From contig DASVNF010000100.1 of NCBI GenBank assembly GCA_036384015.1, positions 5,952 through 69,951 on the forward strand: 64,000 nt of DNA. Direction: 5' to 3'. Below the pieces are notes generated by a model that saw nothing but the letters and a program-made list of their open reading frames with translations, was not told the DNA's origin and did no database searches. Positions 1,978-19,148 of this stretch are shown one piece after another; positions within the stretch are counted from its first letter, which is position 1; each line of letters starts with the position of its first letter. Origin of the DNA: Burkholderiales bacterium. Its GTDB lineage: Bacteria > Pseudomonadota > Gammaproteobacteria > Burkholderiales > JACQAP01. Both the position numbers and the translations under genes were made by a program.

Positions 1978-2541
1978 ATGAAATACCGGAATAAACTCGC
2001 AATCATCATGGTTTCAACAGCGGTGTTTGCACTACCCGCCGCCCATGCCCAGGAAAAGGCGGGCGGGGTCGCCGCCGCGACAGCGGAAACCGTGGTAACG
2101 GTGGTGGAAGTCGACCGCGAAGCGCGGGTCGTTACCGTAATGGGCCCCGAGGGCGGTCTGACGACGATCAACGTCCCCCCTGAAGCGCAAAATCTCGACC
2201 AGGTAGTGCCAGGATCGCGCTTCAAGGTCACGTATCTCGCTTCCGTCGCACTGGCGCTGCGCAAAGGCAGCGGCGCGGCGAGTTCCAGCCAGGGCAGGAC
2301 CGTCCGCCTTGCACCGAAAGGCGATACGCCTGGCGGCGCGGTGGTCAGCGTGCGCGAAGTCAATGCCGTGGTCGAGAAAATCGATCGAGACACCCGCGTT
2401 CTGACGGTGCGCGGTCCCGAAGGAGGCCCACGCGAACTGCAGGTCGACGAGTCGGTCAAGGCTTTCGACCAGGTCAACGTCGGCGACACGATTACGGTCC
2501 AGTTTACCGAAGGCCTGGCGATGCGCATGATCAAGGAGTAA
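1978..2541 (+). CDS. Secreted hypothetical protein with an internal tandem domain duplication
   Basis: GGAG RBS. Signal peptide ending AAHAQE. Two homologous about 55-aa segments: VVEVDREARVVTVMGPEGG... and VVEKIDRDTRVLTVRGPEGG... Confidence 0.6.
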   Translation: MKYRNKLAIIMVSTAVFALPAAHAQEKAGGVAAATAETVVTVVEVDREARVVTVMGPEGGLTTINVPPEAQNLDQVVPGSRFKVTYLASVALALRKGSGAASSSQGRTVRLAPKGDTPGGAVVSVREVNAVVEKIDRDTRVLTVRGPEGGPRELQVDESVKAFDQVNVGDTITVQFTEGLAMRMIKE

Positions 2542-2646: not shown

Positions 2647-2664
2647 ATTGGACTATGGTCCAAT
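2647..2664. promoter_or_regulatory. 18-bp palindrome ATTGGACTATGGTCCAAT (candidate operator, copy 2)
   Basis: Same 7-4-7 palindrome as at 1102. It lies 34 nt upstream of the CheY-like gene start at 2698 and is followed by TTTCCGG. Confidence 0.55.
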
Positions 2665-2697: not shown

Positions 2698-3087
2698 ATG
2701 GCCTCACTTCTGGTCGCCGTGGTTGACGACGAAGAACCTGTTCGCAAGGCTCTCGGCCGCCTGCTGCGTGCCTCCGGTCTGAACGTGCACGCTTTTCCCT
2801 CGGGGCAGGCCTTCATCGACTCGATTGCCTCGGCCCGCCCCGATTGCCTCATCCTCGACCTGCACATGCCCGGACTGAACGGCCTGCAGGTACTCGAGCA
2901 TCTCAAGGCCTGCCGCACGCTTTTCCCCACCATCGTCATCACCGGGCATGACGAACCTGAAAACCAGACGCGCTGCCTGTCCGGAGGCGCGATGGCCTAC
3001 ATGCGCAAGCCGCTGGATGACCGGTTGCTGCTGCATGCCATCGACGAGGCGGTGAAAAATTCCGGCAGCGGGCACCCCCCCGCCTGA
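2698..3087 (+). CDS. Single-domain response regulator (CheY-like receiver only)
   Basis: 129 aa with receiver signatures VAVVDDE, LILDLHMPGLNGLQV and RKP. There is no output domain. Confidence 0.8.
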   Translation: MASLLVAVVDDEEPVRKALGRLLRASGLNVHAFPSGQAFIDSIASARPDCLILDLHMPGLNGLQVLEHLKACRTLFPTIVITGHDEPENQTRCLSGGAMAYMRKPLDDRLLLHAIDEAVKNSGSGHPPA

Positions 3088-3164: not shown

Positions 3165-4031
3165 ATGACAAACACCCTTCTCCTGCTTTCGGCGCTCGGC
3201 ATCCTCGCAATGGCGACCGGCGTCTCCGCCGAACAGCAAGGCGATACGCTTGCGGCGATCAGGAACACGCAGTCCATCAGGCTCGGCTATCTCGACCAGT
3301 CCGTGCCGTTCTCCTTCGTGGACCAGAAGGGAAACCCGCCGCAGGGCTACTCGATTGAACTCTGCCTCAGGGTTGTCGCCGGCATCGAACAGCAGCTCGG
3401 GTTGCAGAAACTCAAGGTGCAATGGGTTCCCCTCACCATGGCGAATCGTTTCGACATGGTGGCGGACGGCAGCGTCGACCTCGAATGCGGCATATCGACC
3501 ATCACCCTGTCGCGCCAGCAGAAGGTGGCTTTCAGCCTGATGACCTGGATAGACGGCGGCAGCTTCGTCGTAAAAGCAGGACGGCCGCACGGCGGCCTGG
3601 GCGATCTCGCCGGCAAGAAAATCGCGGTCATCGCCGGCACCACCACCGAAAGCGCCCTGCGCGATGCGCTGAAGAAGGACTTCATCAAGGCGGACCTCGT
3701 CCTGGTCAAGGAACATCTCGAGGGCCTGGGCGCCTTGGACCAGGGCAGGGCCGACGCCTACGCGGCCGACCAGACGGTGCTGATCGGGCTGGGCCTCGCC
3801 GTCAAGGAGCAGTTGTCCCTGGCCCTCGCCGACCGCAACTTTTCCTTCGAGCCCTACGGGCTGACCCTGAGGCGAAACGACGCTGACTTCAAGCTGGCGG
3901 TCAACCAGGAACTGGCGCGCATCTACCGGACCGGCCAGATCGGCGCGATCTATGACCGCTGGTTCGGCAAGCTGGGCAAACCGTCGTCGATGCTCGCGGC
4001 GATGTTCGCGATCAATGGATTGCCTGAATGA
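3165..4031 (+). CDS. Periplasmic solute-binding protein, family 3 (amino-acid type), orphan
   Basis: Signal peptide ending SAEQQ. Strings IRLGY, PFSF, GYSIELC and VDLECGISTITLSR, with a C-terminal INGLPE. There is no adjacent ABC permease or ATPase gene. Confidence 0.8.
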   Translation: MTNTLLLLSALGILAMATGVSAEQQGDTLAAIRNTQSIRLGYLDQSVPFSFVDQKGNPPQGYSIELCLRVVAGIEQQLGLQKLKVQWVPLTMANRFDMVADGSVDLECGISTITLSRQQKVAFSLMTWIDGGSFVVKAGRPHGGLGDLAGKKIAVIAGTTTESALRDALKKDFIKADLVLVKEHLEGLGALDQGRADAYAADQTVLIGLGLAVKEQLSLALADRNFSFEPYGLTLRRNDADFKLAVNQELARIYRTGQIGAIYDRWFGKLGKPSSMLAAMFAINGLPE

Positions 4032-5705: not shown

Positions 5706-5723
5706 ATTGGACTTTGGTCCAAT
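5706..5723. promoter_or_regulatory. 18-bp palindrome ATTGGACTTTGGTCCAAT (candidate operator, copy 3)
   Basis: Same palindrome. It sits in the divergent intergenic region between the VOC gene (start 5532, minus strand) and the porin/decarboxylase operon (start 5886, plus strand). Confidence 0.55.
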
Positions 5724-5885: not shown

Positions 5886-7190
5886 ATGAAATCGCTCGCA
5901 CTTCTTCTGGCAGTGACGGCGTTCAGCAGTGGCGCGCTCGCGCAATCCAACGAGGAACTCAAGAAAACCGTCAAGGAGCTCGAGACCCGGGTCAAGACGC
6001 TCGAGCAGCAAAAAGCGGGCGCGCCTGCCACCTCCGAGTCGGGAGCGGCAGTCGTCGCGCCCGGTTCGACCGCCGAGGAAGGCTCACGCGATCCCAACAA
6101 GGCGCGCGTCGAGATCTTTGGCCAGATCATGCTCGACGCCATCTACGACTTCAAACGCGTCGACCCCGACTGGAACGCCACCCTGCGGCCCTCGAAGATC
6201 CCCGTGAACTGCCCTGGCGATGCCGGGTGCGGCAAAGATGGCGAGTCCATCTTCAGTATCCGGCAATCCAAGATTGGATTCAGAGGCTTCATTCCCACCA
6301 GCCTGGGCGAACTCACCACCCTGTTCGACATGGATCTGTTCAACAGCGGCGGGGGCAACACGGAGGCTCGCGTGCTCGATGCGTGGGCCGAGCTCGGCCA
6401 GTTTGGCGCCGGGCAGTACTACACCGTGTTCATGGACATCGACTCCTTTCCCAACACGATCGATTATTGGGGTCCCAACGGCATGGTATTCGTGCGCAAC
6501 CCGCAATTGCGCTATACCCCGTACAACCGCGATGGCATGAAGGTCGCGATCTCCCTGGAAGCGCCGGGTACCGCCATCGACACAGGCAAGATCTCGGAGG
6601 TGGATCCCGCCCTCGGCGCCGGAGTCTCGAGTCGTACGCGCCTTCCTGACCTGATCGCCAGCATCCGCGTGGATCGGGACTGGGGACATGCCCAGGCGGC
6701 GGGGATGATACGCCAGCTGGGGTATGACACGCCCGGCAATCCCGACGCCGAACCGTCCGGATCCGAAACCGGCTACGGCATCAACCTGAGCGGCTCGTTC
6801 AATACCATCGGCAAGAACCGCGTTACCGGCGCGATCGTCTTTGGCCGCGGCATCGCGAGCTACATGAATGACGGCGGTGTAGACCTTGCACCGGACGCCG
6901 GCCTGGCCGCCGAAGCCGTCGAGACCGTCGGCTGGTTCGCCTACTACGATCACTACTGGAACGAGAAATGGAGCAGCTCTGCCGGCGTCAGCGAACACAT
7001 CCAGTCCAACACCGACGGCCAGCTTCCAAACGCGTTCAAGAAAGGCAGCTATGGCTCCGCCAACCTGCTCTTCTATCCGGTAAAGAACGTCATGACCGGC
7101 GTCGAGCTGCTGTGGGGGCGCTACGAGCATAACGACGGCGCCGCCGGCAAGGACCAGCGCGTCCAGTTCTCGGCCAAGTTCACGTTCTAG
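5886..7190 (+). CDS. Outer-membrane porin with N-terminal coiled coil (DcaP-like)
   Basis: Signal peptide ending ALAQS. Coiled-coil segment NEELKKTVKELETRVKTLEQQK. Long beta-rich body ending in FSAKFTF (terminal Phe). Confidence 0.65.
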   Translation: MKSLALLLAVTAFSSGALAQSNEELKKTVKELETRVKTLEQQKAGAPATSESGAAVVAPGSTAEEGSRDPNKARVEIFGQIMLDAIYDFKRVDPDWNATLRPSKIPVNCPGDAGCGKDGESIFSIRQSKIGFRGFIPTSLGELTTLFDMDLFNSGGGNTEARVLDAWAELGQFGAGQYYTVFMDIDSFPNTIDYWGPNGMVFVRNPQLRYTPYNRDGMKVAISLEAPGTAIDTGKISEVDPALGAGVSSRTRLPDLIASIRVDRDWGHAQAAGMIRQLGYDTPGNPDAEPSGSETGYGINLSGSFNTIGKNRVTGAIVFGRGIASYMNDGGVDLAPDAGLAAEAVETVGWFAYYDHYWNEKWSSSAGVSEHIQSNTDGQLPNAFKKGSYGSANLLFYPVKNVMTGVELLWGRYEHNDGAAGKDQRVQFSAKFTF

Positions 7191-7210
7191 CCCCCCCGGA
7201 GCAACATGAC

Positions 7211-9469
7211 ATGGAATTCCTCCAGGCATTCCCGATCGCGATCATCGATGAAGACTATGAAGGCAAGAATGCCGCAGGTCGCGGCATGCGGCAGCTCGCC
7301 GCCGCAATCGAGAAAGAGGGTTTTCGCGTAGTCGCTGGCGTCACTTACGAGGACGCACGGCGCCTGGTCGACGTAATGAACGTCGAGTCATGCTGGCTGG
7401 TATCGGTCGACGGCGCGGAGAATAGCCCGAAACAGTGGCAGATCCTCGAGGAAGTGCTGGCCGCAAAGCGCAGCCGCAACGATCGCCTGCCGATCTTCCT
7501 GTTCGGCGACGAGCGCACCGCGGAAGTGGTTCCCGCCAGCGTCCTGAAGCACGCCAACGCCTTCATGCGCCTGTTCGAGGACTCGCCGGAGTTTCTGGCC
7601 CGTGCAATCGCCCGCTCGGCCCAGCTCTACCTCGAGCGCCTCGCCCCGCCGATGTTCAAGGCGCTGATGGACTACACCCTTCACGCGAGCTACTCGTGGC
7701 ATACCCCTGGCCACGGCGGCGGCACCGGCTTCCGCAAGAGTCCCGTCGGCACGCTGTTCTATGAGTTCTTCGGCGAGAACACGCTGCGCTCCGATGTCTC
7801 GGTGTCGGTGGGGCAGCTCGGCTCGCTGCTCGACCATACCGGACCGATCGCCGCCGGTGAGCGCAACGCCGCGCGCATCTTCGGCACCGACGAGACGCTG
7901 TTCGTGGTGGGCGGCACCTCGACAGCCAACAAGGTCATCTGGCACGGCATGGTGGGTCGAGGGGACCTTGTGCTGTGCGACCGCAACTGTCACAAGTCGA
8001 TCCTGCACTCGCTGATCATGACCGGCGCGACGCCGATCTACCTGGTGCCTTCGCGCAACGGCCTGGGCATCATCGGCCCGATTTCGCGCGACCAGTTCAC
8101 CCCCGCGTCGATCAAGAAGAAGATCGCCGCCAGCCCGTTCGCGAAGCAGACCAGCGGCAAGGTGCGCCTGATGGTGATCACCAATTCCACCTACGACGGC
8201 CTGTGCTACAACGTCGACGCCATCAAGGAAAGCCTGGGCGACGCGGTCGAAGTGTTGCATTTCGACGAGGCCTGGTACGCCTACGCCAACTTCCACGAAT
8301 TCTACGACGGGTTTCACGGCATTTCGTCGACCAATCCGGCGCGCGCGCCGCACGCCATCACCTTTGCCACGCATTCCACCCACAAGCTGCTCTGCGCCCT
8401 GTCGCAGGCCTCGATGATCCACGTGCAGCATGGCGAGACGCAGCGTCTTGACATGACCCGCTTCAACGACGCCTTCATGATGCATACCTCGACCTCGCCG
8501 CAGTACGGCATCATCGCCTCGTGCGACGTCGCCGCCGCGATGATGGAACAGCCTGGCGGTCGCGCACTGGTGCAGGAGATCATCGACGAGGCGCTCAGCT
8601 TCCGGCGCGCGATAACCGCGGTGAAGCAGCAGGTCAAGGGCTGGTGGTTCGATGTCTGGCAGCCCGACGCGATGGCGAAAAATCCGGCCGCAGACAAGGC
8701 GCGCTGGGTGCTCAAGCCGAAGGACCAGTGGCACGGCTTCGAGGATCTCGCCGCGAACCACGTCCTGGTCGACCCGATCAAGGTCACCATCCTCACGCCG
8801 GGCCTGACCGCCAACGGCACGATGCAGAAGAGCGGCATTCCGACAGCGGTGGTGGTGAAGTTCCTGTCGTCGCGGCGCATCGAGATCGAGAAGACCGGCC
8901 TGTACTCCTTCCTGGTCTTGTTCTCCATGGGCGTCACCAAAGGCAAGTGGAGCACGCTCGTTACCGAGCTGCTCAACTTCAAGGATTTGTACGACGCCAA
9001 CGCCCCGCTCAAGCGCGCGCTGCCGGCGCTTGCCGCGGCGCACCCGGAAGTCTACGAGCGAATGGGCCTCAAGGACCTGTGCGACGGCATCCACAAGGTT
9101 TATCACGACGACAAGGTGGCCAAGGCGCAGAAGGACATGTACACCGCGCTGCCCGAAATGGCCCTGCGCCCGGCCGACGCCTACGACCACCTGGTCCACG
9201 GCCGCGTGGAGACCGTGGAGATCGACAAGCTGATGAACCACATCCTGGCAGTAATGCTGGTGCCCTATCCACCGGGGATCCCGCTGATCATGCCAGGCGA
9301 GCGCCTGACCAAGGCCACCAAGTCGATCCAGGACTATCTCCTGTATGCACGCGAGTTCGACACCAAATTCCCGGGATTCGAGACCGACATCCACGGCCTG
9401 CGATTCGAACCCGCAGAAGGCGGCCGGCGCTACCTGGTGGACTGCGTGAAGGAAAAGGGCGGCAAATGA
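7211..9469 (+). CDS. Orn/Lys/Arg decarboxylase family (wing domain + PLP fold type I), lysine decarboxylase-like (CadA/LdcC/LdcA clade)
   Basis: 752 aa. Strings SWHTPGHGGG, GTSTANK, DRNCHKS, TNSTYDG and the PLP-lysine motif THSTHKLL. CadA-like strings WWFDVWQP, EKTG, PYPPGIPL and PGFETDIHG, as I recall the E. coli CadA sequence. Confidence 0.8.
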   Translation: MEFLQAFPIAIIDEDYEGKNAAGRGMRQLAAAIEKEGFRVVAGVTYEDARRLVDVMNVESCWLVSVDGAENSPKQWQILEEVLAAKRSRNDRLPIFLFGDERTAEVVPASVLKHANAFMRLFEDSPEFLARAIARSAQLYLERLAPPMFKALMDYTLHASYSWHTPGHGGGTGFRKSPVGTLFYEFFGENTLRSDVSVSVGQLGSLLDHTGPIAAGERNAARIFGTDETLFVVGGTSTANKVIWHGMVGRGDLVLCDRNCHKSILHSLIMTGATPIYLVPSRNGLGIIGPISRDQFTPASIKKKIAASPFAKQTSGKVRLMVITNSTYDGLCYNVDAIKESLGDAVEVLHFDEAWYAYANFHEFYDGFHGISSTNPARAPHAITFATHSTHKLLCALSQASMIHVQHGETQRLDMTRFNDAFMMHTSTSPQYGIIASCDVAAAMMEQPGGRALVQEIIDEALSFRRAITAVKQQVKGWWFDVWQPDAMAKNPAADKARWVLKPKDQWHGFEDLAANHVLVDPIKVTILTPGLTANGTMQKSGIPTAVVVKFLSSRRIEIEKTGLYSFLVLFSMGVTKGKWSTLVTELLNFKDLYDANAPLKRALPALAAAHPEVYERMGLKDLCDGIHKVYHDDKVAKAQKDMYTALPEMALRPADAYDHLVHGRVETVEIDKLMNHILAVMLVPYPPGIPLIMPGERLTKATKSIQDYLLYAREFDTKFPGFETDIHGLRFEPAEGGRRYLVDCVKEKGGK

Positions 9470-11811
9470 TCCCCGGCAAGGTCAAGCCGCCGACGATCCC
9501 GATCCCGTTCCACAAGATGCTGAAGGTGGTTGCGATCGTCGATCCCGGCGATCGCCAGAGCCGGGAACTGGTTGGCCAGATCACAGCAGCCAATTTCGAG
9601 GTGGAGGTCACCGAACGCTGCGAGCGCGACGTCTTCGAGGATGCGGACGTCGGCGCCTATATCGTACTGGTGGATGGGGAACGCCTGGAGACGGCGCGCA
9701 AGATGGCGTCGGAAGTGCGCGCAATCGGTTTTCGCACACCGCTCTGGGCACTGGCCAATTCCCGCAGGATATCCGACCTGGCCATCGTCAGTGGCCTTGG
9801 CGAAGTCGAGGGCTTCATTTATCTCGGGCAGCAGAGCCCCGCTTTCTACGCAAAGCAGGTCGTAGCTAGCGTCACCCGCTACGGCATGAGCCTGCTTCCC
9901 CCATTCTTCGGCGGCCTGATGGCTTACGACGGCGAGGCAACCATCGCCTTCGACTGCCCGGGCCACCAGGGTGGCCAGTTCTATCGCAAGTCGCCCGCGG
10001 GCCAGCTGTTCTTCCGCCATTTCGGCGAGAACATCTTCCGCAATGACCTGTGCAATGCCGACGTGGAGCTGGGCGACCTGCTGATCCATGAAGGCGTGGC
10101 GGCGGAAGCGCAAAAACACGCCGCCCGCGTGTTCGGCGCCGACCGCACTTATTTCGTCCTCAACGGCACCAGTTCGTCCAACAAGGTCGTCACCGGCTCG
10201 GTGTTGCGCCAGGGCGACCTGGTGCTGTTCGATCGCAACAACCACAAGTCCATGCACCAGGGCGGCTTGGTCCAGGCCGGCGCGATCCCGGTGTTCCTGC
10301 CCACGGCGCGCAACGGCTTCGGCATGATCGGACCGGTCGACTGGGAGGCGTGGGACGAGAAGTTCCTGCGCGAGCAAATCCGCGCCAATCCTTTGGTCAA
10401 GGACAAGGATCGGGCGAAGGCAGAACGCCCGTTCCGCCTCGCCTGCATCCAGCTTGCCACCTACGACGGCACCGTATACAACGTGCGCAAGGTCATGGAG
10501 AAGATCGGGCATCTTTGCGACTACATCCTCTGGGATGAGGCCTGGATCGGCTACAACGCCTTCCATCCGCTGTATGAAGACCACAGCCCGATGCGCATCA
10601 CGAAGCTCGGGCCCGAAATGCCGGGCCTCTTTTCCACCCAGTCCGTGCATAAACAGGGCGCCGGCTTTTCACAGGCCTCGCAGATCCACAAGCGCGACGA
10701 GCACATCCGCGGCCAGAAACGCTACGTCGAGCACAAGCGCTTCAACGAGGCCTTCCTGATGAATGCCTCGACCTCGCCGTTCTACCCGCTGTTCGCCTCG
10801 CTCGACGTCAACGCCAAGGTGCACGAAGGCAAGGCCGGCGAGATGCTGTGGGACCGCTGCATCGCGCTTGGCATCGAAGCCCGCAAGAAGCTGCGCGAAT
10901 TCGTGCGCCACTACGAGAAAAGCGGGAAGGGCAAGGAAGAACAATGGTTCTTCGATCCCTTCGTCCCCGATGTCGTCGCGCTCGACGGGAACGAGAAGCG
11001 CGCCTGGGAAGACATCCCCACACAGCAGCTCAAGCGTGACCAGCGCTGCTGGAACTTCCAGCCCGACGCAAAATGGCATGGCTACGCCGGCATGGCCGAC
11101 GGATACGCAATGGTCGACCCGAACAAGCTGATGCTGCTCACCCCGGGCATCGACCGGAAGAGCGGCGGCTACCTCGAATTCGGGGTGCCGGCAACGGTAG
11201 TGGCCAATTACCTGCGCGAGCAACGGATCGTTCCCGAGAAATGCGACCTCAACAGCATCCTGTTCCTGATGACGCCGGCGGAGGACGAAAGCAAGCTCAA
11301 CTCGCTGATCGGCAAGCTGGTGCGCTTCAAGGACCTGTGGGATCGCGACGCCCCGCTGGGCGAAGTCCTGCCAACGCTGGCAGGTACGCACGCGGAGCGC
11401 TATGACGGCTACACCCTGCGCAAGGTCTGCCGCGAAATGCACGATTTCTACCGCAAGGCGAACATCAAGGAGCTGCAGCGCTTGAGCTTTCGCGCTTCAA
11501 GTTTCCCGGAACTTGCCTGTACCCCGCAGGAGGCGTACCGCGCGCTGGTCGGCAACGAGGTCGACTACGTGCCGATGGAGCAGGCCAGGGGCCGCATCGC
11601 CGCCACCCTCGCCCTGATCTATCCCCCGGGTATCGGGGTGGTGGTGCCCGGGGAACGGTGGGACGCGCGAGCCCAGCCGATGATGGACTACCTGGCTGCG
11701 TTCGAGGAATCGTTCAACCGCTTTCCTGGCTTCAACTACGAAGTACAGGGCATTTACCAGGAAAGAATTGACGGCCGCATCAAATTCCACACTTACGTAG
11801 TCAAGGAGTAA
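9466..11811 (+). CDS. Orn/Lys/Arg decarboxylase family, ornithine decarboxylase-like (SpeC/SpeF clade)
   Basis: In-frame part of ORF 8521..11811. ATG 9466 overlaps the upstream stop (ATGA), and ATG 9517 is an alternative start. SpeF-like strings: FDCPGHQGG, DLCNADVELGDLLIHEG, TYFVLNGTSSSNKVV, FDRNNHKS, TQSVHKQGAGFSQASQIHKRD, STSPFYPLFASLDVNAK and VPEKCDLNSILFLMTPAED. Confidence 0.8.
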   Translation: MIPGKVKPPTIPIPFHKMLKVVAIVDPGDRQSRELVGQITAANFEVEVTERCERDVFEDADVGAYIVLVDGERLETARKMASEVRAIGFRTPLWALANSRRISDLAIVSGLGEVEGFIYLGQQSPAFYAKQVVASVTRYGMSLLPPFFGGLMAYDGEATIAFDCPGHQGGQFYRKSPAGQLFFRHFGENIFRNDLCNADVELGDLLIHEGVAAEAQKHAARVFGADRTYFVLNGTSSSNKVVTGSVLRQGDLVLFDRNNHKSMHQGGLVQAGAIPVFLPTARNGFGMIGPVDWEAWDEKFLREQIRANPLVKDKDRAKAERPFRLACIQLATYDGTVYNVRKVMEKIGHLCDYILWDEAWIGYNAFHPLYEDHSPMRITKLGPEMPGLFSTQSVHKQGAGFSQASQIHKRDEHIRGQKRYVEHKRFNEAFLMNASTSPFYPLFASLDVNAKVHEGKAGEMLWDRCIALGIEARKKLREFVRHYEKSGKGKEEQWFFDPFVPDVVALDGNEKRAWEDIPTQQLKRDQRCWNFQPDAKWHGYAGMADGYAMVDPNKLMLLTPGIDRKSGGYLEFGVPATVVANYLREQRIVPEKCDLNSILFLMTPAEDESKLNSLIGKLVRFKDLWDRDAPLGEVLPTLAGTHAERYDGYTLRKVCREMHDFYRKANIKELQRLSFRASSFPELACTPQEAYRALVGNEVDYVPMEQARGRIAATLALIYPPGIGVVVPGERWDARAQPMMDYLAAFEESFNRFPGFNYEVQGIYQERIDGRIKFHTYVVKE

Positions 11812-11814
11812 AGC

Positions 11815-14115
11815 ATGGCGCTTCCCGGTACAGGTCCGCTTCGTCCTCGCGTACTGATTGTCGATGACGCGCTTGCCCGGCCCGACACGGCAATCGGCCG
11901 CGCTGCCGAAGGCATTACGTCGGCCCTCGCGGCACGCAACTGCGACGTCGTCCGCGCACTGTCGTTCGAGGACGGGGCGGCAGTTGTTGGTTTCGATGCC
12001 TCGCTGCGCACCGTTCTTCTGAACTGGCACCTCGGCACCGAGGGAAAGACCGTGCCCGCCCAGGCGTCCTCCCTGCTGCACAAGCTGCGCGAACGGCACC
12101 CCAACGTGCCCGTATTCCTGACTGCGAATCGCAAGCTGGTCAGGGACAACATGAGCATCGAAGTCGCCGAGCTGGTGGACGAATTCGTCTGGCTGCTGGA
12201 GGACACTGCGGATTTTGTCGCCGGCCGCGTGATGGCAGCGATCAACCGCTACCAGGCAAAGCTCCTGCCACCTTATGCCCGTGCGCTCGCCACTTACTCG
12301 CAACTGCGCGAACACTCGTGGTCGGCACCGGGGCATCAGGGCGGCATTGCATTCACCAAGCTGCCCGCCGGGCGCGCGTTCTTCGACTTCATGGGCGAGA
12401 ACCTGTTTCGCACCGACATGGGCATCGAGCGCGGCGCGCTCGGCTCGCTGCTCGACCATACCGGACCCGTGGCGGAGAGCGAGAAGTACGCGGCGCGCGT
12501 CTTTGGAGCACACCGCAGCTATTCCGGTGTGGTCGGAACCTCGGGGTCGAACCGCAGCATCATGCAGGCCTGCATGAAAGCCGACGATCTGGTCGTGCTG
12601 GACCGCAACTGCCACAAGTCCATCGAGCAGGGCCTGATGCTGACCGGCGCGCGTCCCGTCTACATGGTGGCCTCGCGCAACCGTTACGGCATCATCGGGC
12701 CCATCGCACCGTCCGAGATGGATCCGAAGACCATCGTGGCCAAGGCGAAGGCAGGGCCGCTCACCAGGAAGTTTTCCGGCCGGAAGCCGGTATACGCTGT
12801 CGTCACGAACAGCACCTACGACGGCATGTGCTACAACTCCGCGCGCGTCGAAGCGCTGCTCGGGAAGTCCAGTGACAGGGTGCATATGGACGAAGCGTGG
12901 TACGGCTACGCGCGATTCAACCCGATGTACGAGAACCACTTCGCGATGCGCGGCGATCCGGCATCGCACAAGGGCCCGACGGTGTTCGCGACGCATTCGA
13001 CGCATAAGCTGCTCGCGGCGCTGTCGCAGGCGTCCTACATCCATGTGCGCGACGGCAAAGGGGCGATCGACCACCACCGCTTCAACCAGGCGTACATGAT
13101 GCACACCAGCACCTCGCCCCTCTACGCGATCGTCGCGTCGAACGACATCACGACCGCGATGATGGACGGTAGCGGAGGACAGTCCCTGACACAGGAAACG
13201 ATCAACGAAGCGGTCGACTTCCGGCAGGCGGTCGGCCGGGTGCGGCGCGAATTCTCGAAGAAGAAAGACTGGTTCTTCAAGCCGTGGAACGCCGAAACAG
13301 TGAAGCTCTCGAACGGGCGCAAGGTTGCATTCGAGGACGCCCCGGCCGAAAGCCTTTGCAACAGCCAGGAGCCGTGGGTGCTGCGTCCCGGCGACAAATG
13401 GCACGGCTTCGGGGATATTGCCGACGACTGGTGCATGCTCGACCCGATCAAGGTCAGCATCCTCTCGCCGGGGATGGGCGACGACGGCAAGCTGGAGAAG
13501 ACTGGCGTGCCGGCGGCCCTGGTGAACGCCTGGTTCAACCGCTTCGGCATCGTGCCGACGCGCGTAACCGATTTTCAGGTGATGTTTCTGTTCTCGATCG
13601 GCATCACGCGCGGCAAGTGGGGCACCCTGCTCACCAACTTGCTCGCATTCAAGCGCGATTACGACGCCAATCTTCCGGTGTCCCATTCGCTGCCGGAGAT
13701 CGCTGCGCAATACCCGCAGCGTTACGGCAAGATCGGCATGCGCGACCTGGGTAACGAGCTGTTCGAGTACCTGCGCGAGAACCGCCCCGGCGACGTGCTG
13801 AATGACGCCTACAAGACGCTCCCAGCGATGGACATGACGCCACGCGAAGCGTACGAGCGCCTGGTGTCCGGCGAAGTCGAACTGGTGCCGACCGACAAGC
13901 TCGCGCGGCGCACCGCAGCCAACGGCGTGATGCCCTACCCGCCCGGCATCCCTATGCTGATGTCCGGGGAGAACTTCGGTGGCAGGGATTCGCCCCAGAT
14001 CGAGTATCTGCGCAGCATGCAAAACCGGGAGAAACAGTTCCCCGGCTTCAGCGGAGTGATAGAAGGCGCGGAAATGATCGACGGGATCTTCCATGTCCTG
14101 TGCGTGAAAAAGTAG
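11815..14115 (+). CDS. adiA: Biodegradative arginine decarboxylase-like (AdiA clade of the Orn/Lys/Arg decarboxylase family)
   Basis: AAGGAG RBS. Near-colinear with E. coli AdiA as I recall it: LEDTADFVAGR, SWSAPGHQGG, GENLFRTDMGIERG, GTSGSNRSIMQAC, DRNCHKSIEQGLMLTGARPVYM, ATHSTHKLL, TDFQVMFLFSIGITRGKWGTL, PYPPGIPMLMSGENFG and C-terminal DGIFHVLCVKK. Confidence 0.8.
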   Translation: MALPGTGPLRPRVLIVDDALARPDTAIGRAAEGITSALAARNCDVVRALSFEDGAAVVGFDASLRTVLLNWHLGTEGKTVPAQASSLLHKLRERHPNVPVFLTANRKLVRDNMSIEVAELVDEFVWLLEDTADFVAGRVMAAINRYQAKLLPPYARALATYSQLREHSWSAPGHQGGIAFTKLPAGRAFFDFMGENLFRTDMGIERGALGSLLDHTGPVAESEKYAARVFGAHRSYSGVVGTSGSNRSIMQACMKADDLVVLDRNCHKSIEQGLMLTGARPVYMVASRNRYGIIGPIAPSEMDPKTIVAKAKAGPLTRKFSGRKPVYAVVTNSTYDGMCYNSARVEALLGKSSDRVHMDEAWYGYARFNPMYENHFAMRGDPASHKGPTVFATHSTHKLLAALSQASYIHVRDGKGAIDHHRFNQAYMMHTSTSPLYAIVASNDITTAMMDGSGGQSLTQETINEAVDFRQAVGRVRREFSKKKDWFFKPWNAETVKLSNGRKVAFEDAPAESLCNSQEPWVLRPGDKWHGFGDIADDWCMLDPIKVSILSPGMGDDGKLEKTGVPAALVNAWFNRFGIVPTRVTDFQVMFLFSIGITRGKWGTLLTNLLAFKRDYDANLPVSHSLPEIAAQYPQRYGKIGMRDLGNELFEYLRENRPGDVLNDAYKTLPAMDMTPREAYERLVSGEVELVPTDKLARRTAANGVMPYPPGIPMLMSGENFGGRDSPQIEYLRSMQNREKQFPGFSGVIEGAEMIDGIFHVLCVKK

Positions 14116-14160
14116 CACCCGAATGGCAGCGATCGAAACACCAAAAAAGGGGAGATGATC

Positions 14161-16413
14161 ATGGCAGCCAGCACCACGAAAAAAATGTCCTTGATGCAGC
14201 TGACGATCCTGGTCTCCGTCAACATGATGGGGTCCGGCATCATCATGCTGCCGACGAACATGGCCCAGGTCGGCGCGATCTCGCTGCTGTCCTGGATCGT
14301 GACTGCCGTCGGGTCGATGCTGATCGCGTACGGCTTCGCCCAGGCAGGCATTTTCAACAACCGGCCGGGCGGCATGTCGGCCTACGCCGAGGATGCCTAC
14401 GGCAAGCCCGGCTACTTCATGGTGTTCCTGCTCTATTTCTTCTCCCTCGCCATCGGCAACGTCGCGATCGCGATTTCCGCGGTGGGCTATCTTTCCGGCT
14501 TTTTTCCAGGCCTTTCGGCGACGCCGATCGCGACCTGCCTCAGCGTGATCGGCCTGATCTGGCTCACGTCCGTCGCCAATTTCGGCGGCCCTTCGATCAC
14601 CGGCAGGATCGGCTCCGTCACGGTGTGGGGCGTCATCATCCCGGTTGCCGGCCTGTCCATCATCGGCTGGTTCTGGTTCAAGAGCGACACCTTCATGCAG
14701 GCGTGGAATCCGCAGGGAATGAGCATCGGCGAAGGCATGGGCTCGAGCATTGCGCTGACGCTATGGGCCTTCCTGGGCATGGAGTCCGCGGCACAGAACT
14801 CCGATGCCGTGGAAGATCCCAAGCGCAACGTTCCACTCGCGTGCATGTTCGGCACGCTGGGCGCAGCGGTCATCTATATCCTCTCGACAACCGTGATCCA
14901 GGGCATTGTTCCCAACGCCGAGCTGGCAGAATCGACGGGCCCGTTCGCGCTTGCGTACGCCCACATGTTCAATCCGACCGTCGGCTCGATCATCATGGCA
15001 CTGGCGATCCTGGCCTGCCTCGGTTCGCTCCTCGGCTGGCAGTTCACCATCTCGCAAACCGCGAAGGCCGCCGCCGACGATCGCATGTTTCCTAGGTTTT
15101 TCTCGAAGCTCAACAAGCTGGGTGCCCCGGTGATGGGATTGATCATCATGGGCGTTGTCCAGTCGGTGATGGCGCTATCCACCATCTCGCCCAGCCTGAG
15201 CGAGCAGTTCAGCGCGCTGGTCAATCTTGCCGTGGTCACCAACGTGGTGCCCTACATCATTGCGCTCTCCGCGCTGGTCGTAATGATGAAAAAGGCGGGC
15301 GTCACCAGCGGGGTTTACAAGCGCAACGTCATCATAGGAGTGGGCGCCATGCTCTATTCTACGTACGCGATCTACGCCTCGGGCAAAGATGCCGTCCTTG
15401 GCGGGATGATCATCGTGGCACTCACCTACATCCTCTGGGGATTCCTCGCCCCACGCTTTGCGTCGGTCAAACCAGCGGCCGCTCCCGCTTCCGCCGGCGG
15501 TGTCGCCGCCTCCGGCATTGCGCTCGCTGCGCTGCTGGCGCTCGTGCTGCTGCTTGCCGGAACGCAACCCGCCGAGGCTGCCGGTACGATGGACCGCATC
15601 AAGAGTTCGGGCAAGCTGAAACTGGGCTATAGCGCCGACACCCGCCCCTTTACCTTTGACGGAGGATCCGGTCCGGCCGGCTTCGCGATCGACCTGTGCA
15701 TGGCGATCGCCGGCGAAGCGAAGGCGGCCCCTGGCATGGGGGCGCTAGCGGTGGAATTCGTCCCACTGGCGCATGACGAAGGGCCGCAGGCCGTGGCGCA
15801 AGGCAAGGTCGACATCTCGTGCGAGCCGACCGTGCCGACGAGGACCTCGCGCAAGCAGGTCTCGTACTCGATCCCGGTTTTCGCAAGCGGGGTCGGCGTT
15901 GTTGTCAGCAAGGACGCCTCCTCACGACTCAAGAACATTCTCTCCGGCCAAACGCCGCCAACAAGCCCCACCTGGCGCGCCAATGCGGACAAGCTTATTC
16001 GGGAAAGCACGTTTTCAGTGATTGAAGGCACGCAAAGCCAGCGCGTATTCGAGCAGCGGATGAGTCAGTTGAAGCTCATTCCCAAGGTCTCGACCGTCAA
16101 GGATTTCGACGCCGGCATTCAAGACGTCATCGACGGGCGTGCCAATGCCTTCTTCGGCAACCGCGCAATCCTTCTGGACGCGGTCAAGCGCAAAGGCGGG
16201 TCGGCTCACCTGGAGGTGCTCGACCGGCTGTTCACGAATGAAACCTATGCTTTTGCGGTTCCACGCGGTGACGAGGATTTCCGGCTCCTGGTGGACGGAG
16301 CCTTGAGCCGGCTGTTCCTGTCCAATGAACTTGGAGACGTCTACGGGAAGTGGTTCGGACTGCTCAACGAGAATGCGCGTTCCCTGTTCCAGCTGAATGC
16401 GCTCCCGGACTGA
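14161..16413 (+). CDS. potE: PotE-like basic amino acid/polyamine antiporter (APC family) fused to a C-terminal family-3 periplasmic solute-binding domain
   Basis: The N-terminal about 435 aa are colinear with E. coli PotE as I recall it: QLTIL..VNMMGSGIIMLPT, SWIVTAVGSM, GNVAIAISAVGY, ANFGG..ITG, VTVWGVIIPV, GWFWF, LTLWAFLG.ES, NVP, LGWQFTI and LVNLAVVTNV.PYI. A hydrophobic segment VAASGIALAALLALVLLLAG plus AEA follows. The SBP domain then has KLKLGY, FAIDLC and a C-terminal LNALPD. Start is ATG 14161 (GGGGAG RBS), with ATG 14155 as an alternative. Confidence 0.8.
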   Translation: MAASTTKKMSLMQLTILVSVNMMGSGIIMLPTNMAQVGAISLLSWIVTAVGSMLIAYGFAQAGIFNNRPGGMSAYAEDAYGKPGYFMVFLLYFFSLAIGNVAIAISAVGYLSGFFPGLSATPIATCLSVIGLIWLTSVANFGGPSITGRIGSVTVWGVIIPVAGLSIIGWFWFKSDTFMQAWNPQGMSIGEGMGSSIALTLWAFLGMESAAQNSDAVEDPKRNVPLACMFGTLGAAVIYILSTTVIQGIVPNAELAESTGPFALAYAHMFNPTVGSIIMALAILACLGSLLGWQFTISQTAKAAADDRMFPRFFSKLNKLGAPVMGLIIMGVVQSVMALSTISPSLSEQFSALVNLAVVTNVVPYIIALSALVVMMKKAGVTSGVYKRNVIIGVGAMLYSTYAIYASGKDAVLGGMIIVALTYILWGFLAPRFASVKPAAAPASAGGVAASGIALAALLALVLLLAGTQPAEAAGTMDRIKSSGKLKLGYSADTRPFTFDGGSGPAGFAIDLCMAIAGEAKAAPGMGALAVEFVPLAHDEGPQAVAQGKVDISCEPTVPTRTSRKQVSYSIPVFASGVGVVVSKDASSRLKNILSGQTPPTSPTWRANADKLIRESTFSVIEGTQSQRVFEQRMSQLKLIPKVSTVKDFDAGIQDVIDGRANAFFGNRAILLDAVKRKGGSAHLEVLDRLFTNETYAFAVPRGDEDFRLLVDGALSRLFLSNELGDVYGKWFGLLNENARSLFQLNALPD

Positions 16414-16450
16414 ATGACAGGCACTGCGTTTGCGGTCAGCTGCGGTTGAA

Positions 16451-17761
16451 ATGACAGCTACGCCAAACGCGGCCAAGAGCCTGGGGCTCGCCGCCTGTAC
16501 CGCGGTAGTGGTGGGGAACATGGTGGGTTCGGGCTTCTACCTGTCGCCCACCGCCACGGCACCCTACGGCCTGCTCGCGATCTTCGCCTGGAGCGTGATG
16601 GGCGCTGGTGCAATCTGCCTCGGCCTTACCTTCGCGCGCCTGGCGCGCATCGCGCCGGCGACCGGCGGACCGTTCGCCTACACGCGCATGGCGTACGGTG
16701 ACTTCGCCGGCTTCCTTGTCGCCTGGGGTTACTGGATCTCCATCTGGGCGTCGCTGCCGGCAATCGCGTTCGCCTTCGCCGGCGCACTCATAAACCTTTT
16801 TCCCGCCCTGCAGAACAGAACCATGGCACTGGCGCTGACGCTCGCCCCAATCTGGGCCGTGGTGCTGATAAACCTGCGCGGCGTGAAGACGGCCGGCATC
16901 TTCGCCGAGGTCACGACCTACTCCAAGCTCGTTCCCTTCGCCGCGGTCGCGCTGGTCGGCTTGTTTTACGTGCGCAGCGAGAACCTGCCGGCCTTCAATC
17001 CCACAGGAGAGTCGCTGCTCGCCTCCAGTGCGGCGCTCGCGCCGCTCGTGATGTTCGCCTACCTTGGCCTGGAGTCGGCAACCGTTCCGGCGGGCGATGT
17101 ACGCGACGCGACGCGCACCATCCCCCGTTCGACCATCATCGGTATCAGCATTGCCGCCGTGCTCTACGTGCTCGGCACCATAGTGGTTTTCGGCGTCGTG
17201 CCGCCCGACCAACTGCTGAAGTCGGTGGCCCCGTTCACCGACGCCGCGCGGATCATGTGGGGCGACTGGGGCGCCGGCGCGATCGCCGCCGCCGTGATTG
17301 TCTCTTCTATCGGCGCATTGAACGGCTGGACGCTCATGATGGGGCAAGTCCCCATGGCGGCCGCGCAGGAGGGCCTGTTCCCTCCCGCCTTCGGCCGGCT
17401 GTCAGCAAGCGGCGTCCCAGCGCTCGGCATCGTAATCTCGGCCATGCTTACCACCGCGATGGTGTTGGTCCAGACCTGGGGCGCACCGGGGGTGCGCGCG
17501 TTCTACAATCTGGTGGTCAGCCTGAGCACGATGGCGGCGGTGATCCCCTATGCGTTCTGCGCGCTGGCGGTAGGCTTGGTCGCCGCGCGCAACGGCGGAA
17601 AGGCGCGTATCGGTCCGGTCGAAATCATCGCATTCGTGTTCGCGATGTTCACCGTCTACGGCTGCGGCGCGGAAGCCGTCCTGTATGGCCTGCTGCTGCT
17701 CTTGCTTGGAATTCCGGTGTACGTGTGGCAGCGCCAGGGCACGCCTCCGGCGACTGGCTAG
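16451..17761 (+). CDS. APC-superfamily amino acid/polyamine transporter (second transporter of the operon)
   Basis: About 12 predicted hydrophobic segments. APC signature GNMVGSGFYLSP and GGPFAYTRMAYGDFAGFLVAWGYW. The ORF track starts at TTG 16430, and ATG 16451 was chosen. Confidence 0.75.
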   Translation: MTATPNAAKSLGLAACTAVVVGNMVGSGFYLSPTATAPYGLLAIFAWSVMGAGAICLGLTFARLARIAPATGGPFAYTRMAYGDFAGFLVAWGYWISIWASLPAIAFAFAGALINLFPALQNRTMALALTLAPIWAVVLINLRGVKTAGIFAEVTTYSKLVPFAAVALVGLFYVRSENLPAFNPTGESLLASSAALAPLVMFAYLGLESATVPAGDVRDATRTIPRSTIIGISIAAVLYVLGTIVVFGVVPPDQLLKSVAPFTDAARIMWGDWGAGAIAAAVIVSSIGALNGWTLMMGQVPMAAAQEGLFPPAFGRLSASGVPALGIVISAMLTTAMVLVQTWGAPGVRAFYNLVVSLSTMAAVIPYAFCALAVGLVAARNGGKARIGPVEIIAFVFAMFTVYGCGAEAVLYGLLLLLLGIPVYVWQRQGTPPATG

Positions 17762-17993
17762 GCGCGCGCGAGCAACAGCCTCCTTGCGTTCCTTCGCAAA
17801 CTGTCGACATCGAGCATGCCGGTATGCCGGCGCCGCGGGCATTTCAATATGTCCATGGACTGAAGCAATCCCTGGAAAAAGTGCCCCGGCAAGTCCTGGA
17901 CCCGGCATCTTCCGGAGTTGACCACTTCTGGATCATTGCTCCCCGCCCCGCTCTCCCGATAGCATTGCATTCTTGCATCAGAAGGAAATCTTG

Positions 17994-18338
17994 ATGAGGT
18001 ATGTCCCTTCCATCGTTGGCGCCTGGCTCCTGATTGCGGCATCAGGGGCATTCGAGATTGTCTTTTCTGTCCTCCTCAAGGAGTCCGACGGCTTCACCAG
18101 GCCGATCCCCACTGCGATCGGCATAACCGCCGCGCTCCTGAGCATCTGGCTGATGACGATCGCCCTGCGAACTCTTCCGCTCGGGCCGTCGTACGCGGTC
18201 TGGGCCGGAATCGGGACGCTGGGAACGGCCATTGCGGCAGTCGTCATCTACTCGGAATCGGTGACCGTCCCAAAGACGGTATTCATGCTTTTCATCATCA
18301 TCGGTATCGTCGGCCTGCAGCTGCACGGCCGGGACTAG
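17994..18338 (+). CDS. gdx: SMR-family small multidrug/guanidinium exporter (SugE/Gdx-like)
   Basis: 114 aa with 4 hydrophobic helices. Conserved membrane Glu in AFEIVFSVLLK, and PLGPSYAVWAGIGTLGTA resembles SugE PVGTAYAVWTGIGAVGAA. ATG 17994 has an AAGGA RBS. Confidence 0.75.
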   Translation: MRYVPSIVGAWLLIAASGAFEIVFSVLLKESDGFTRPIPTAIGITAALLSIWLMTIALRTLPLGPSYAVWAGIGTLGTAIAAVVIYSESVTVPKTVFMLFIIIGIVGLQLHGRD

Positions 18339-18375
18339 GCCGGGAGCGTCAACACGCGGGGGGAGCCGGTTTTTC

Positions 18376-18393
18376 ATTGGACCAAAGGCCAAT
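18376..18393. promoter_or_regulatory. 18-bp near-palindrome ATTGGACCAAAGGCCAAT (candidate operator, copy 4, one arm mismatch)
   Basis: Same motif with GGCCAAT in place of GTCCAAT. It lies 72 nt upstream of the OM barrel gene start at 18465 and is flanked by CCGGTTTTTC. Confidence 0.5.
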
Positions 18394-18464: not shown

Positions 18465-19148
18465 ATGATTTCAATGAAAAGCGCCCTGATCCAGCTGGCC
18501 GCTGCCGCCCTGACTATGGCCTGGATGGCCGGAGCATCCGGCCAGGATGTCACCGATCGCGCCGGCAAGTGGGAAGGCCACTTCAACATCCTCTACGGCG
18601 ACTCGCAGAACGTCACCGGCGACAACGGCTCGTCGGCGGACGTCGACAGCAGCGCCGGCTGGGGTTTCGGCTTCGGCTACAACTTCAATGACCACTGGGC
18701 ACTGGAGGGCAACTTCAGCTACCGGGATGCCGACTACCGCGCCACCGTCGCGCCCGGCGCCGGCAATCCCAATCTGCCGCAATCGATCTCCGGCACCATG
18801 GAAACCTCCACGCTTGCGTTCAATGCCACGTATAACCTGCTGGCCAGGTCGTTCACGCCGTTCGTAACCGGCGGGGTCGGCGGCACCTACGTGGACACCA
18901 ACATTCCCGACGGGCTTGCAGTACCGGTGTGCTGGTGGGATCCCTGGTGGGGGTACTACTGCGCTCCGGCCTATCCCACAAAGGCGGAAACCTACTTCAG
19001 CTACAACGTCGGCGCCGGGGTGCGCTGGGAATCCAAGGGTTCGCTGTTCCTGCGGGCCCTGGTCAGCGAGCAATGGATCGACGTGGGTGGCGACATCGGG
19101 ACCCCCGATTTCCTGCAGTTTCGTCTGGACATCGGCACGCGTTTCTGA
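18465..19148 (+). CDS. Outer-membrane beta-barrel protein (small porin/OmpA-like barrel family)
   Basis: GGAGG RBS. Signal peptide ending MAGASGQD. Gly/aromatic-rich alternating strands and a C-terminal LDIGTRF. Confidence 0.7.
   Translation: MISMKSALIQLAAAALTMAWMAGASGQDVTDRAGKWEGHFNILYGDSQNVTGDNGSSADVDSSAGWGFGFGYNFNDHWALEGNFSYRDADYRATVAPGAGNPNLPQSISGTMETSTLAFNATYNLLARSFTPFVTGGVGGTYVDTNIPDGLAVPVCWWDPWWGYYCAPAYPTKAETYFSYNVGAGVRWESKGSLFLRALVSEQWIDVGGDIGTPDFLQFRLDIGTRF

Follow-up and report, generated by a model that had tools for sequence, protein, structure and literature searches.

The textbook devices for acid resistance in enteric bacteria are pairs of an amino-acid decarboxylase and an antiporter, which, to our knowledge, have been studied almost only in these bacteria. 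A 64,000-nucleotide stretch of DNA from a Burkholderiales bacterium (assembly GCA_036384015.1, contig DASVNF010000100.1, positions 5,952 to 69,951 of the forward strand), hereafter called the window, raises the question of what three such decarboxylases do when they stand in a single run with two transporters and an outer-membrane channel. The run occupies 5886-17761 of the window and comprises, in order, a DcaP-like porin gene, three decarboxylase genes (dc1, dc2 and dc3), a gene for a PotE-type antiporter fused to a periplasmic solute-binding protein (SBP), and the gene of a second transporter of the APC family (APC2). The answer that we consider probable on balance is an inducible, envelope-spanning module in which basic amino acid uptake is coupled to proton-consuming decarboxylation and amine export. 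The fusion of antiporter and binding protein is the most unusual part of the cluster. Coordinates of all features are collected in Table 1.

All six genes lie on the plus strand and follow one another closely. The porin and dc1 genes are 20 nt apart, dc1 and dc2 overlap by 4 nt (ATGA), and 3 nt separate dc2 from dc3; the fusion gene follows dc3 after 39 nt (45 nt with the NCBI start), and APC2 follows the fusion gene after 16 nt with a TTG start or 37 nt with an ATG start. A sequence-only reading of the window had described this plus-strand run, its junctions and the lack of an internal regulator. The coordinates agree exactly with the open reading frame (ORF) listing, the junctions were borne out, and no regulator gene occurs inside the run, a kinase/FixJ-type regulator pair being found at 20-1038 instead. 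Pfam likewise returned the three-domain decarboxylase architecture, DcaP, AA_permease_2 and SBP_bac_3. Shine-Dalgarno-like sequences precede five of the six genes, and G+C at third codon positions is 0.81-0.87 in five of them, in a window of 62-65% G+C (dc2 was excluded from this filter, a first-start rule having lengthened its ORF to 8521). The intergenic gaps of the run contain no terminator-like site, all such predictions falling within coding regions. The six genes most likely form one transcript.

The three decarboxylases carry the wing domain (OKR_DC_1_N), the major domain (OKR_DC_1; E = 1e-151 to 1e-163) and the C-terminal domain (OKR_DC_1_C), all above the Pfam cutoffs. The pyridoxal phosphate (PLP) lysine of the S-x-H-K motif is kept in each (K392 in dc1, K396 in dc2, K398 in dc3), aligns with K367 of CadA and K386 of AdiA, and is invariant in 33 of the 33 aligned decarboxylases. 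A bootstrapped neighbour-joining tree was built from 33 sequences, with E. coli K-12 reference genes included. In this tree the three enzymes, which are 34-40% identical to one another, fall into three separate clades with a bootstrap of 100 each, in agreement with the expectation that each would belong to a different one. They are old paralogs from three clades, and a recent same-clade triplication is ruled out by the pairwise identities and the separate placements.

The assignment of dc1 as CadA/LdcC-like did not survive this analysis. Its best match in the Protein Data Bank (PDB) is 6q6i, the LdcA of P. aeruginosa (966 bits; LdcC, 592 bits), and in the tree it is monophyletic with Pseudomonas LdcA (bootstrap 100%, 59% identity), with CadA/LdcC as the sister group. 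Both NCBIfam lysine decarboxylase models were missed by a wide margin (LdcC, 709 versus 968 bits; CadA, 659 versus 1056), and the scores against LdcC (709) and AdiA (684) are nearly equal, with no cutoff passed. Membership in the CadA/LdcC clade is thus ruled out by the NCBIfam scores, the best PDB match and the tree placement, and dc1 belongs with the LdcA subfamily defined by Carriel et al. in 2018 (PMC6257575). The known lysine enzymes (CadA, LdcC and LdcA) differ from the Adc clade at 29 alignment columns; in 17 of these the dc1 clade has the Ldc-type residue, and in none the Adc-type residue. These residues suggest that the substrate of dc1 is probably lysine. The protein is also 78% identical to an SMa0682-like protein of Sinorhizobium meliloti. 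No CadB ortholog is present (APC2 is 26% identical to CadB), and no ToxR-like (CadC-type) regulator was found in the window.

The two other class assignments held. The ornithine decarboxylase dc2 passes the NCBIfam ornithine decarboxylase subfamily PRK13578 (928 versus 794 bits) but scores below the cutoff of the narrower SpeF model TIGR04301 (915 versus 1310); its best PDB match is 1ord, the ornithine decarboxylase of Lactobacillus 30a (711 bits), and it is 51-52% identical to SpeF/SpeC and 77% to the speC/odc1 product of S. meliloti. No SpeFL-type leader peptide occurs upstream of dc2, and there is no leader region there because the dc2 start overlaps the dc1 stop. The arginine decarboxylase dc3 passes the NCBIfam AdiA equivalog (1200 versus 1167 bits), matches 2vyc (E. 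coli AdiA) best in the PDB with 1072 bits, and is 63% identical to E. coli AdiA, with a clade bootstrap of 100. Neither an AdiC ortholog (the nearest protein, APC2, is 33% identical and scores 269 bits, the cutoff being 574) nor an AraC-type (AdiY) gene lies in the window.

The fifth gene (14155-16413) carries AA_permease_2 and SBP_bac_3 in one ORF, as had been proposed. Its N-terminal 445 residues pass the PotE equivalog PRK10655 (676 versus 409 bits), score 557 bits against TIGR04299 (cutoff 560), and are 55% identical to E. coli PotE. The additional helix between the two domains has the highest Kyte-Doolittle value in the fusion protein (2.68), and AlphaFold2 predicts it at residues 451-467; split orthologs have the cleavable signal peptide of the SBP at the same position. 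The linker helix is, judging from this correspondence, a retained SBP signal peptide that joins PotE to the SBP. Because PotE-type carriers end in the cytoplasm and the linker adds one helix, the SBP domain is placed in the periplasm. The fusion keeps an AXA-type cleavage motif, and the protein may thus be processed into two parts. The nearest solved relatives of the SBP domain, which AlphaFold2 models with a predicted local distance difference test score of about 90 (fusion modelled with 120 homologs), bind cationic or acidic (polar) amino acids; the family consensus retains the Arg and Asp typical of alpha-amino-acid binders, with Asn at the Asp position in the window copy.

Further analysis revealed that the two parts travel together. 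An SBP_bac_3 gene adjoins potE on its 3′ side in 31 of the 31 loci with a close potE; in three loci, counting the window (L017, L031 and the window), the two are fused in frame, and in the split loci inspected, 7 of the 9 loci examined, the SBP ORF begins 4-27 nt past the potE stop or overlaps potE. Both domains are present in each of the 120 best database relatives of the fusion, which are 712-775 aa long, and fused PotE-SBP protein clusters number at least 120. A search with the SBP domain in a 50% cluster library found a subfamily of modest size whose members mostly stand alone (81 representatives at E <= 1e-30), although this library is not usable for counting fusions, as fused proteins cluster there by their PotE part. 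Since PotE and the SBP are adjacent in all 31 loci and fused in many proteins, the pair suggests an undescribed binding-protein-assisted APC antiporter. The literature, of which our coverage is incomplete, yielded no report of an APC/PotE transporter that has an SBP as a fused or coupled partner.

The second APC transporter, also expected from the earlier reading, scores below all NCBIfam cutoffs, with AdiC as the top match (269 bits). It is 41% identical to the Pseudomonas transporter that follows ldcA, 33% to AdiC, 26% to CadB and 25% to PotE. The natural pairings are dc2 with PotE and dc1 with APC2, leaving dc3 without a dedicated AdiC.

At the head of the run, the porin scores 60 bits against Pfam DcaP (cutoff 27), the match covering positions 65-216 of the 410 in the profile, that is, the N-terminal part only, and also matches Porin_2 (2.7e-08). 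A heptad-like segment, EELKKTVKELETRVKTLEQQK, follows its signal peptide, in keeping with the coiled-coil DcaP-like porin that had been predicted there. It resembles DcaP of Acinetobacter baumannii in the above-cutoff DcaP match and the coiled coil after the signal peptide, but its barrel fits Porin_2 better and its gene sits in a decarboxylase operon. Orthologs of this porin (57-73%) head the cluster in L001, L016, L030 and L031, and porins of the DcaP/Porin_2 type do so in six loci. An Alginate_exp-type channel unrelated to the window porin precedes dc1 in L010 (2800-4125) and follows the decarboxylases in L091 (14577-15998). Because non-homologous channels occupy the same neighbourhood, outer-membrane passage appears to be part of the module's function.

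Upstream of the porin lies a palindrome that the sequence-only reading had singled out as a candidate operator; it is real and is one of four exact copies. The copy at 5706 reads ATTGGAC-N4-GTCCAAT, and the pattern ATTGGNC-N4-GNCCAAT has four exact matches in the window and none in 100 shuffles; the ideal palindrome is ATTGGACC-WW-GGTCCAAT, 18 bp long. All four copies fall within the first 19 kb, each ahead of a plus-strand gene, with none in the other 45 kb. In L002, L004, L010 and L022 the palindrome stands immediately before the leading gene of the orthologous cluster, and copy 4 is conserved before the orthologous outer-membrane protein gene in L087. A REP-like repeat was rejected on the grounds that all copies lie upstream of genes, that the other 45 kb has none and that orthologous positions are occupied elsewhere. 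The palindrome does not match FixK (TTGA-N6-TCAA), FixJ (TAAGTAATTTCCCTTA and related) or FxkR (GTTACA-N4-GTTACA) sites (PMC13327599, PMC4999443). We read it as the genuine operator of a small local regulon that comprises two outer-membrane proteins, a receiver-only regulator with a stand-alone SBP, and the decarboxylase operon.

The best candidate for a protein that binds these palindromes is, by adjacency, the response regulator encoded at 403..1038, whose best NCBIfam match is FixJ (213 bits, cutoff 255). Its start is overlapped by 4 nt by the stop of a sensor kinase gene; the ATPase tail alone of this kinase lies in the window, and it has weak NCBIfam similarity to FixL and AtoS. Homologs of the receiver-only regulator occur in L022, L016 and Rhizobium loci, and the stand-alone SBP is a paralog of the PotE-fused SBP, with 27-36% identity to the SBPs encoded after potE in other loci. 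The receiver-only regulator and the stand-alone SBP (2698-4031) are paired under their own palindrome and may constitute a branch of the two-component system that senses a ligand.

The distribution of the cluster was examined by a scan for dc1 orthologs in one genome per species. Orthologs with 73-90% identity occur in at least 35 genomes, among them Rhizobium, Mesorhizobium, other Alphaproteobacteria, Burkholderiales and Nitrosomonadales, as well as metagenome-assembled genomes (MAGs) of Verrucomicrobia, Gemmatimonadota and Acidobacteria; next below them stands Pseudomonas LdcA at 55-58%. The LdcA subfamily was confined to Pseudomonadaceae and Betaproteobacteria in the 2018 survey (PMC6257575), whereas here close orthologs are abundant in Rhizobiaceae and other phyla. 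In 26 of the 33 assessable loci, across several bacterial classes, dc2 directly follows dc1, usually with potE after it; dc3 and APC2 lie elsewhere nearby at variable positions. The potE gene directly follows dc2 in most related loci, and in the window dc3 lies between them. The order porin-dc1-dc2-dc3-potE is complete in L016, a Nitrosomonadales MAG, and L031, a Burkholderiales MAG, while L025 has the order dc1-potE/SBP-dc2-dc3. In Ottowia sp. GCA_047975795.1 (L089, 1555-12289) a LysR gene, a porin, three decarboxylases and PotE-SBP occur together, the first decarboxylase being a divergent Adc-like paralog (54% to dc3) in place of LdcA, followed by Odc and Adc. This divergent paralog is also found in Mesorhizobium, Verrucomicrobia and Gemmatimonadota loci. 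One metagenome contig carries dc2 (95%), dc3 (90%) and PotE-SBP (83%). In L005 (12262-14623) the dc2 ortholog was matched in two overlapping pieces, which suggests a frameshift or assembly error in that MAG. A Ca2+/H+ exchanger and a polyphosphate kinase 2 follow potE-SBP both on the S. meliloti plasmid pSymA (L081, 17186-20013) and in a Burkholderiales-like metagenome contig (L087, 6207-8112), making up a second conserved neighbourhood.

The six-gene arrangement is therefore less singular than the sequence-only reading had supposed. The core dc1-dc2-potE-SBP is known and common: Rhizobiaceae and other soil bacteria carry it widely, and its presence on pSymA has been noted before. What stands is the three-class, porin-headed version, which is a recurrent but minor variant and for which no description was found in the literature.

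Among the closest described systems is the pSymA cluster SMa0682-SMa0680(odc1)-potE-SBP_bac_3, annotated as arginine/lysine/ornithine decarboxylase, speC, potE and amino-acid-binding protein. It has the same core order as the window, with 78% identity in the LdcA-like enzyme, 77% in the ornithine decarboxylase and 75% in PotE. An APC2 ortholog (69%) lies just upstream of this core, with a cation diffusion facilitator gene between it and dc1. Unlike the window, pSymA lacks a third decarboxylase of the AdiA type in the run, a porin and any copy of the window's palindrome, and its SBP is a separate gene. A review has described the SMa0682-SMa0680 region as a possible basic amino acid/polyamine antiporter acid-resistance region (PMC10385936). 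The cluster alone extends known biology by enlarging the rhizobial cluster and is not a new kind of system.

With the enterobacterial cadBA, adiA-adiC and speF-potE pairs, for which the antiporter-decarboxylase cycle is established (PMC6257575, PMC10385936), the window shares the combination of a wing-domain PLP decarboxylase and an APC precursor/product antiporter. In E. coli these pairs occupy three separate loci regulated by CadC, AdiY and the SpeFL leader, as the sequence-only reading had stated and the K-12 reference loci confirm; the window has one run and two antiporters. It lacks a CadA/LdcI-clade enzyme and a CadB or AdiC ortholog, and adds the porin and the SBP. The ldcA-PA1819 pair of P. 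aeruginosa is comparable in that dc1 belongs to the LdcA subfamily (59%) and APC2 is nearest the transporter downstream of ldcA (41%), but in the window the two stand at opposite ends of the run. A precedent for decarboxylases outnumbering antiporters, and hence for sharing, is the three-component system of Lactobacillus saerimneri 30a, in which ornithine and lysine wing-domain decarboxylases are served by one antiporter that exchanges both pairs (PMC6257575); that system is Gram-positive, both its enzymes are of the Odc lineage, and it has neither porin nor SBP.

For the fusion, the comparison lies with the TRAP, TTT and TAXI-GltS systems, in which the gene of a secondary transporter is coupled to, and in some cases fused with, that of a periplasmic binding protein. 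Transporter families known to use binding proteins are ABC, TRAP and TTT, with elevator-type carriers as an emerging theme, and TAXI-GltS was proposed in 2025 from translational coupling and fusions, the same kind of evidence as for PotE-SBP (PMC12344293). The membrane part in the window is a LeuT-fold APC antiporter (AA_permease_2) and not DctQM, TctAB or GltS, and its SBP is a type II SBP_bac_3 protein unlike those of the three systems; PotE-SBP may work alike but is not a member.

The gene order, domain content, clade membership and conservation of the cluster, together with the recurrence of the palindrome, were observed directly; for the cycle proposed below, we infer the substrates, direction of transport, inducing signal, co-transcription and role of the SBP. 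The transcript of the six genes would start downstream of the 18-bp operator, probably bound by the neighbouring FixJ-type regulator, in response to oxygen limitation, by analogy with S. meliloti, or to pH and amino acids. The DcaP-like porin would pass lysine, ornithine, arginine and their diamines across the outer membrane. In the periplasm, where the thirteenth helix (the retained signal peptide) would put it, the SBP domain would capture the amino acid and hand it over to the antiporter, either tethered or cut off by signal peptidase. The PotE domain would swap external ornithine for internal putrescine, and APC2 would most likely trade lysine against cadaverine, perhaps also arginine against agmatine. 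Inside the cell dc1 (probably on lysine), dc2 (on ornithine) and dc3 (on arginine) would each use one proton per turnover. A singly charged amino acid would enter and a doubly charged amine leave; because this exchange moves net charge outward, the cycle would raise cytoplasmic pH and build proton-motive force.

Several observations weigh against this reading. Substrate shifts are documented within these decarboxylase clades, and one Burkholderia lysine decarboxylase lies in the Adc clade (PMC6257575). For want of an AdiC ortholog, no carrier can be assigned to the exchange of arginine for agmatine. In the AlphaFold2 model of the fusion the predicted template-modelling score is 0.55, the linker is of low confidence or disordered, and the SBP has no defined docking on PotE. 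The regulator is tied to the palindrome by adjacency alone, known FixJ sites differ in sequence (PMC4999443), and a sigma-70-like promoter scan of 5400-18600 gave none. Among the relatives, Odc1 of S. meliloti, the dc2 ortholog, is ornithine-specific with low activity and its mutant grows normally at pH 5.5 (PMC10385936); ldcA of P. aeruginosa is not acid-induced, is controlled by ArgR, and serves lysine catabolism and polyamine supply (PMC6257575). The function of the present locus is, moreover, itself deduced from sequence.

These points leave room for other explanations. One is a special case of the envelope-spanning module with another signal and another purpose, namely an oxygen-limitation energy module, induced in microoxia through a FixL/FixJ-like sensor and supplying proton-motive force while respiration is restricted. 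In S. meliloti the orthologs SMa0680 and SMa0682 belong to the FixJ symbiotic regulon, listed with arcA1BC (PMC13327599); on pSymA 7 kb separate arcABC from the cluster, and in Rhizobium loci FixL/FixJ-like pairs are found 7-9 kb away from the cluster. In the window the kinase tail and the regulator resemble FixL and FixJ, but below cutoff (213 versus 255 bits for the regulator), the sensor domain of the kinase lies beyond the window edge so that a haem-PAS was not seen, and the palindrome is unlike published FixJ and FixK sites (PMC4999443, PMC13327599). We regard this version as possible but doubtful.

An unlikely alternative is that the locus produces and secretes polyamines (cadaverine, putrescine and agmatine) for the envelope, oxidative stress, biofilm or signalling, and that proton consumption is not its purpose. 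LdcA and the constitutive enterobacterial enzymes have been described as polyamine producers unrelated to acid stress (PMC8983666, PMC6257575), and expression of SMa0680 and SMa0682, both members of the FixJ symbiotic regulon (PMC13327599), rises in a tolC mutant that experiences oxidative or envelope stress (PMC2912261); the lack of an acid phenotype of the odc1 mutant at pH 5.5 points the same way (PMC10385936). However, decarboxylases with a purely biosynthetic role do not usually share an operon with a porin, a periplasmic binding protein and precursor/product antiporters, the module as read here draws its substrates from outside rather than from internal pools, and the bulk polyamines of S. 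meliloti come from another enzyme, Odc2 (PMC10385936).

The decarboxylases could also open a catabolic route in which lysine, ornithine and arginine serve as carbon and nitrogen sources and the transporters act as importers, which we think improbable. LdcA of P. aeruginosa does send cadaverine into the 5-aminovalerate/glutarate pathway under ArgR control (PMC6257575), and an SBP suits high-affinity nutrient scavenging. Because no downstream catabolic genes are present, with neither the cluster nor its immediate flanks encoding an amine transaminase, dehydrogenase, agmatinase or agmatine deiminase, this explanation is weakened, and the PotE domain exceeds the cutoff of a putrescine-ornithine antiporter equivalog, which implies product export. 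Finally, six neighbours that are transcribed independently and without functional coupling would agree with the failure to map a promoter or terminator and with the differing positions of dc3, APC2 and the porin between genomes, but such chance juxtaposition is hardly credible given junctions that overlap or span 3-45 nt, an order that recurs in L016, L031 and, in parallel, Ottowia, and a core kept in 26 of 33 assessable loci of several bacterial classes.

Returning to the envelope-spanning module, we tentatively propose a more specific form, to which we give somewhat less than even credence. In this form, a dedicated type II SBP would supply substrate to a LeuT-fold APC precursor/product antiporter, to which it would be either translationally coupled or fused by way of a retained signal peptide. 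With the channel and the three decarboxylases this pair may form a complete capture-exchange-decarboxylation machine that would let soil bacteria gain proton consumption and membrane potential from very dilute lysine, ornithine and arginine, and that would be controlled by a FixJ-family regulator at the unreported 18-bp palindrome.

Soil Burkholderiales and rhizobia thus assemble the parts of the enteric devices otherwise: an LdcA-type enzyme stands in place of CadA, up to three substrate classes come under one control region with a dedicated outer-membrane channel, and the antiporter is linked to a periplasmic binding protein. If the SBP does serve an APC antiporter, one more family would join ABC, TRAP, TTT and TAXI-GltS, and the SBP would explain how the module operates at the low amino-acid levels of soil and rhizosphere. 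As the pSymA orthologs belong to the FixJ symbiotic regulon, the function is testable in tractable rhizobia, and the locus bears on how bacteroids cope with an acidic, microoxic symbiosome. The coupling of SBP and antiporter and the shared operator are the parts that most deserve experiment.

Table 1. Positions of the run, its candidate operators and neighbouring features within the window.
Feature	Position	Strand	Evidence or context
Sensor histidine kinase, C-terminal end; gene crosses left window edge	20..406	+	Pfam HATPase_c 2.9e-25
FixJ/LuxR-type response regulator, REC + GerE helix-turn-helix	403..1038	+	Response_reg 8.5e-27, GerE 6.1e-19
Palindrome copy 1, ATTGGACCAAGGTCCAAT, perfect 8-2-8	1102..1119	.	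100 nt before outer-membrane protein gene 1219
Small outer-membrane beta-barrel protein	1219..1917	+	Pfam OMP_b-brl 2.9e-09
Secreted 187-aa protein, unknown family	1978..2541	+	Signal-like N-terminus; no Pfam family
Palindrome copy 2, ATTGGACTATGGTCCAAT	2647..2664	.	33 nt before receiver-only regulator gene
Receiver-domain-only response regulator	2698..3087	+	Pfam Response_reg 3.1e-26
Stand-alone SBP_bac_3 periplasmic amino-acid-binding protein	3165..4031	+	Pfam SBP_bac_3 2.1e-24
Palindrome copy 3, ATTGGACTTTGGTCCAAT, candidate operator of decarboxylase operon	5706..5723	.	162 nt before porin start codon
DcaP-like outer-membrane porin, signal peptide + N-terminal coiled coil	5886..7190	+	Pfam DcaP 2.8e-16
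dc1: wing-domain PLP decarboxylase, LdcA subfamily (probable lysine decarboxylase)	7211..9469	+	Pfam, 6q6i, tree
dc2: ornithine decarboxylase, Odc clade, SpeF/SpeC-like	9466..11811	+	PRK13578, 1ord, tree
dc3: AdiA-type arginine decarboxylase	11815..14115	+	AdiA equivalog, 2vyc, tree
PotE-type putrescine/ornithine antiporter domain, 12 hydrophobic segments	14155..15501	+	PRK10655, hydropathy scan
Extra hydrophobic helix (residues 450-468), then PAEAA	15502..15582	+	Hydropathy, AlphaFold2
SBP_bac_3 periplasmic binding domain fused to PotE	15583..16413	+	Pfam SBP_bac_3 2.4e-17
APC2: second basic amino acid/polyamine antiporter candidate	16430..17761	+	Pfam AA_permease_2 2.6e-53
SMR-family small exporter, SugE-like	17973..18338	+	Pfam Multi_Drug_Res 2e-20
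Palindrome copy 4, ATTGGACCAAAGGCCAAT	18376..18393	.	71 nt before second outer-membrane protein gene
Second small outer-membrane beta-barrel protein	18465..19148	+	Pfam OMP_b-brl 7.7e-14

Past the run, the 146 nt around the APC2 stop (17755-17900) folded into no significant structure (z = -0.97), and the 3′ end of the unit is therefore undefined. No terminator was found between APC2 and the SMR exporter gene, whose product scores 84 bits against NCBIfam SugE (cutoff 126) and has an 84% ortholog in the same neighbourhood in L087. The exporter gene may or may not belong to the unit; the exporter and the small outer-membrane protein after the cluster are syntenic in this related metagenome contig (L087, 12858-14178). 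Scans of the window with Rfam, which found no RNA family and hence no riboswitch or leader, and for tRNA genes were both empty. Homologs of the 187-aa secreted protein adjoin the cluster in L016 and L030. The minus-strand ORF at 70-951 is an antisense artefact of the response regulator gene. On the minus strand as well, a small Gly/Tyr/Pro-rich predicted lipoprotein with the lipobox FASGC and no assigned family is encoded at 4307-4642, just upstream of a two-domain glyoxalase-family gene at 4639-5604. A 989-aa protein with duplicated DUF1254/DUF1214 domains, encoded at 26420-29389 on the minus strand, is apparently unrelated to the cluster.

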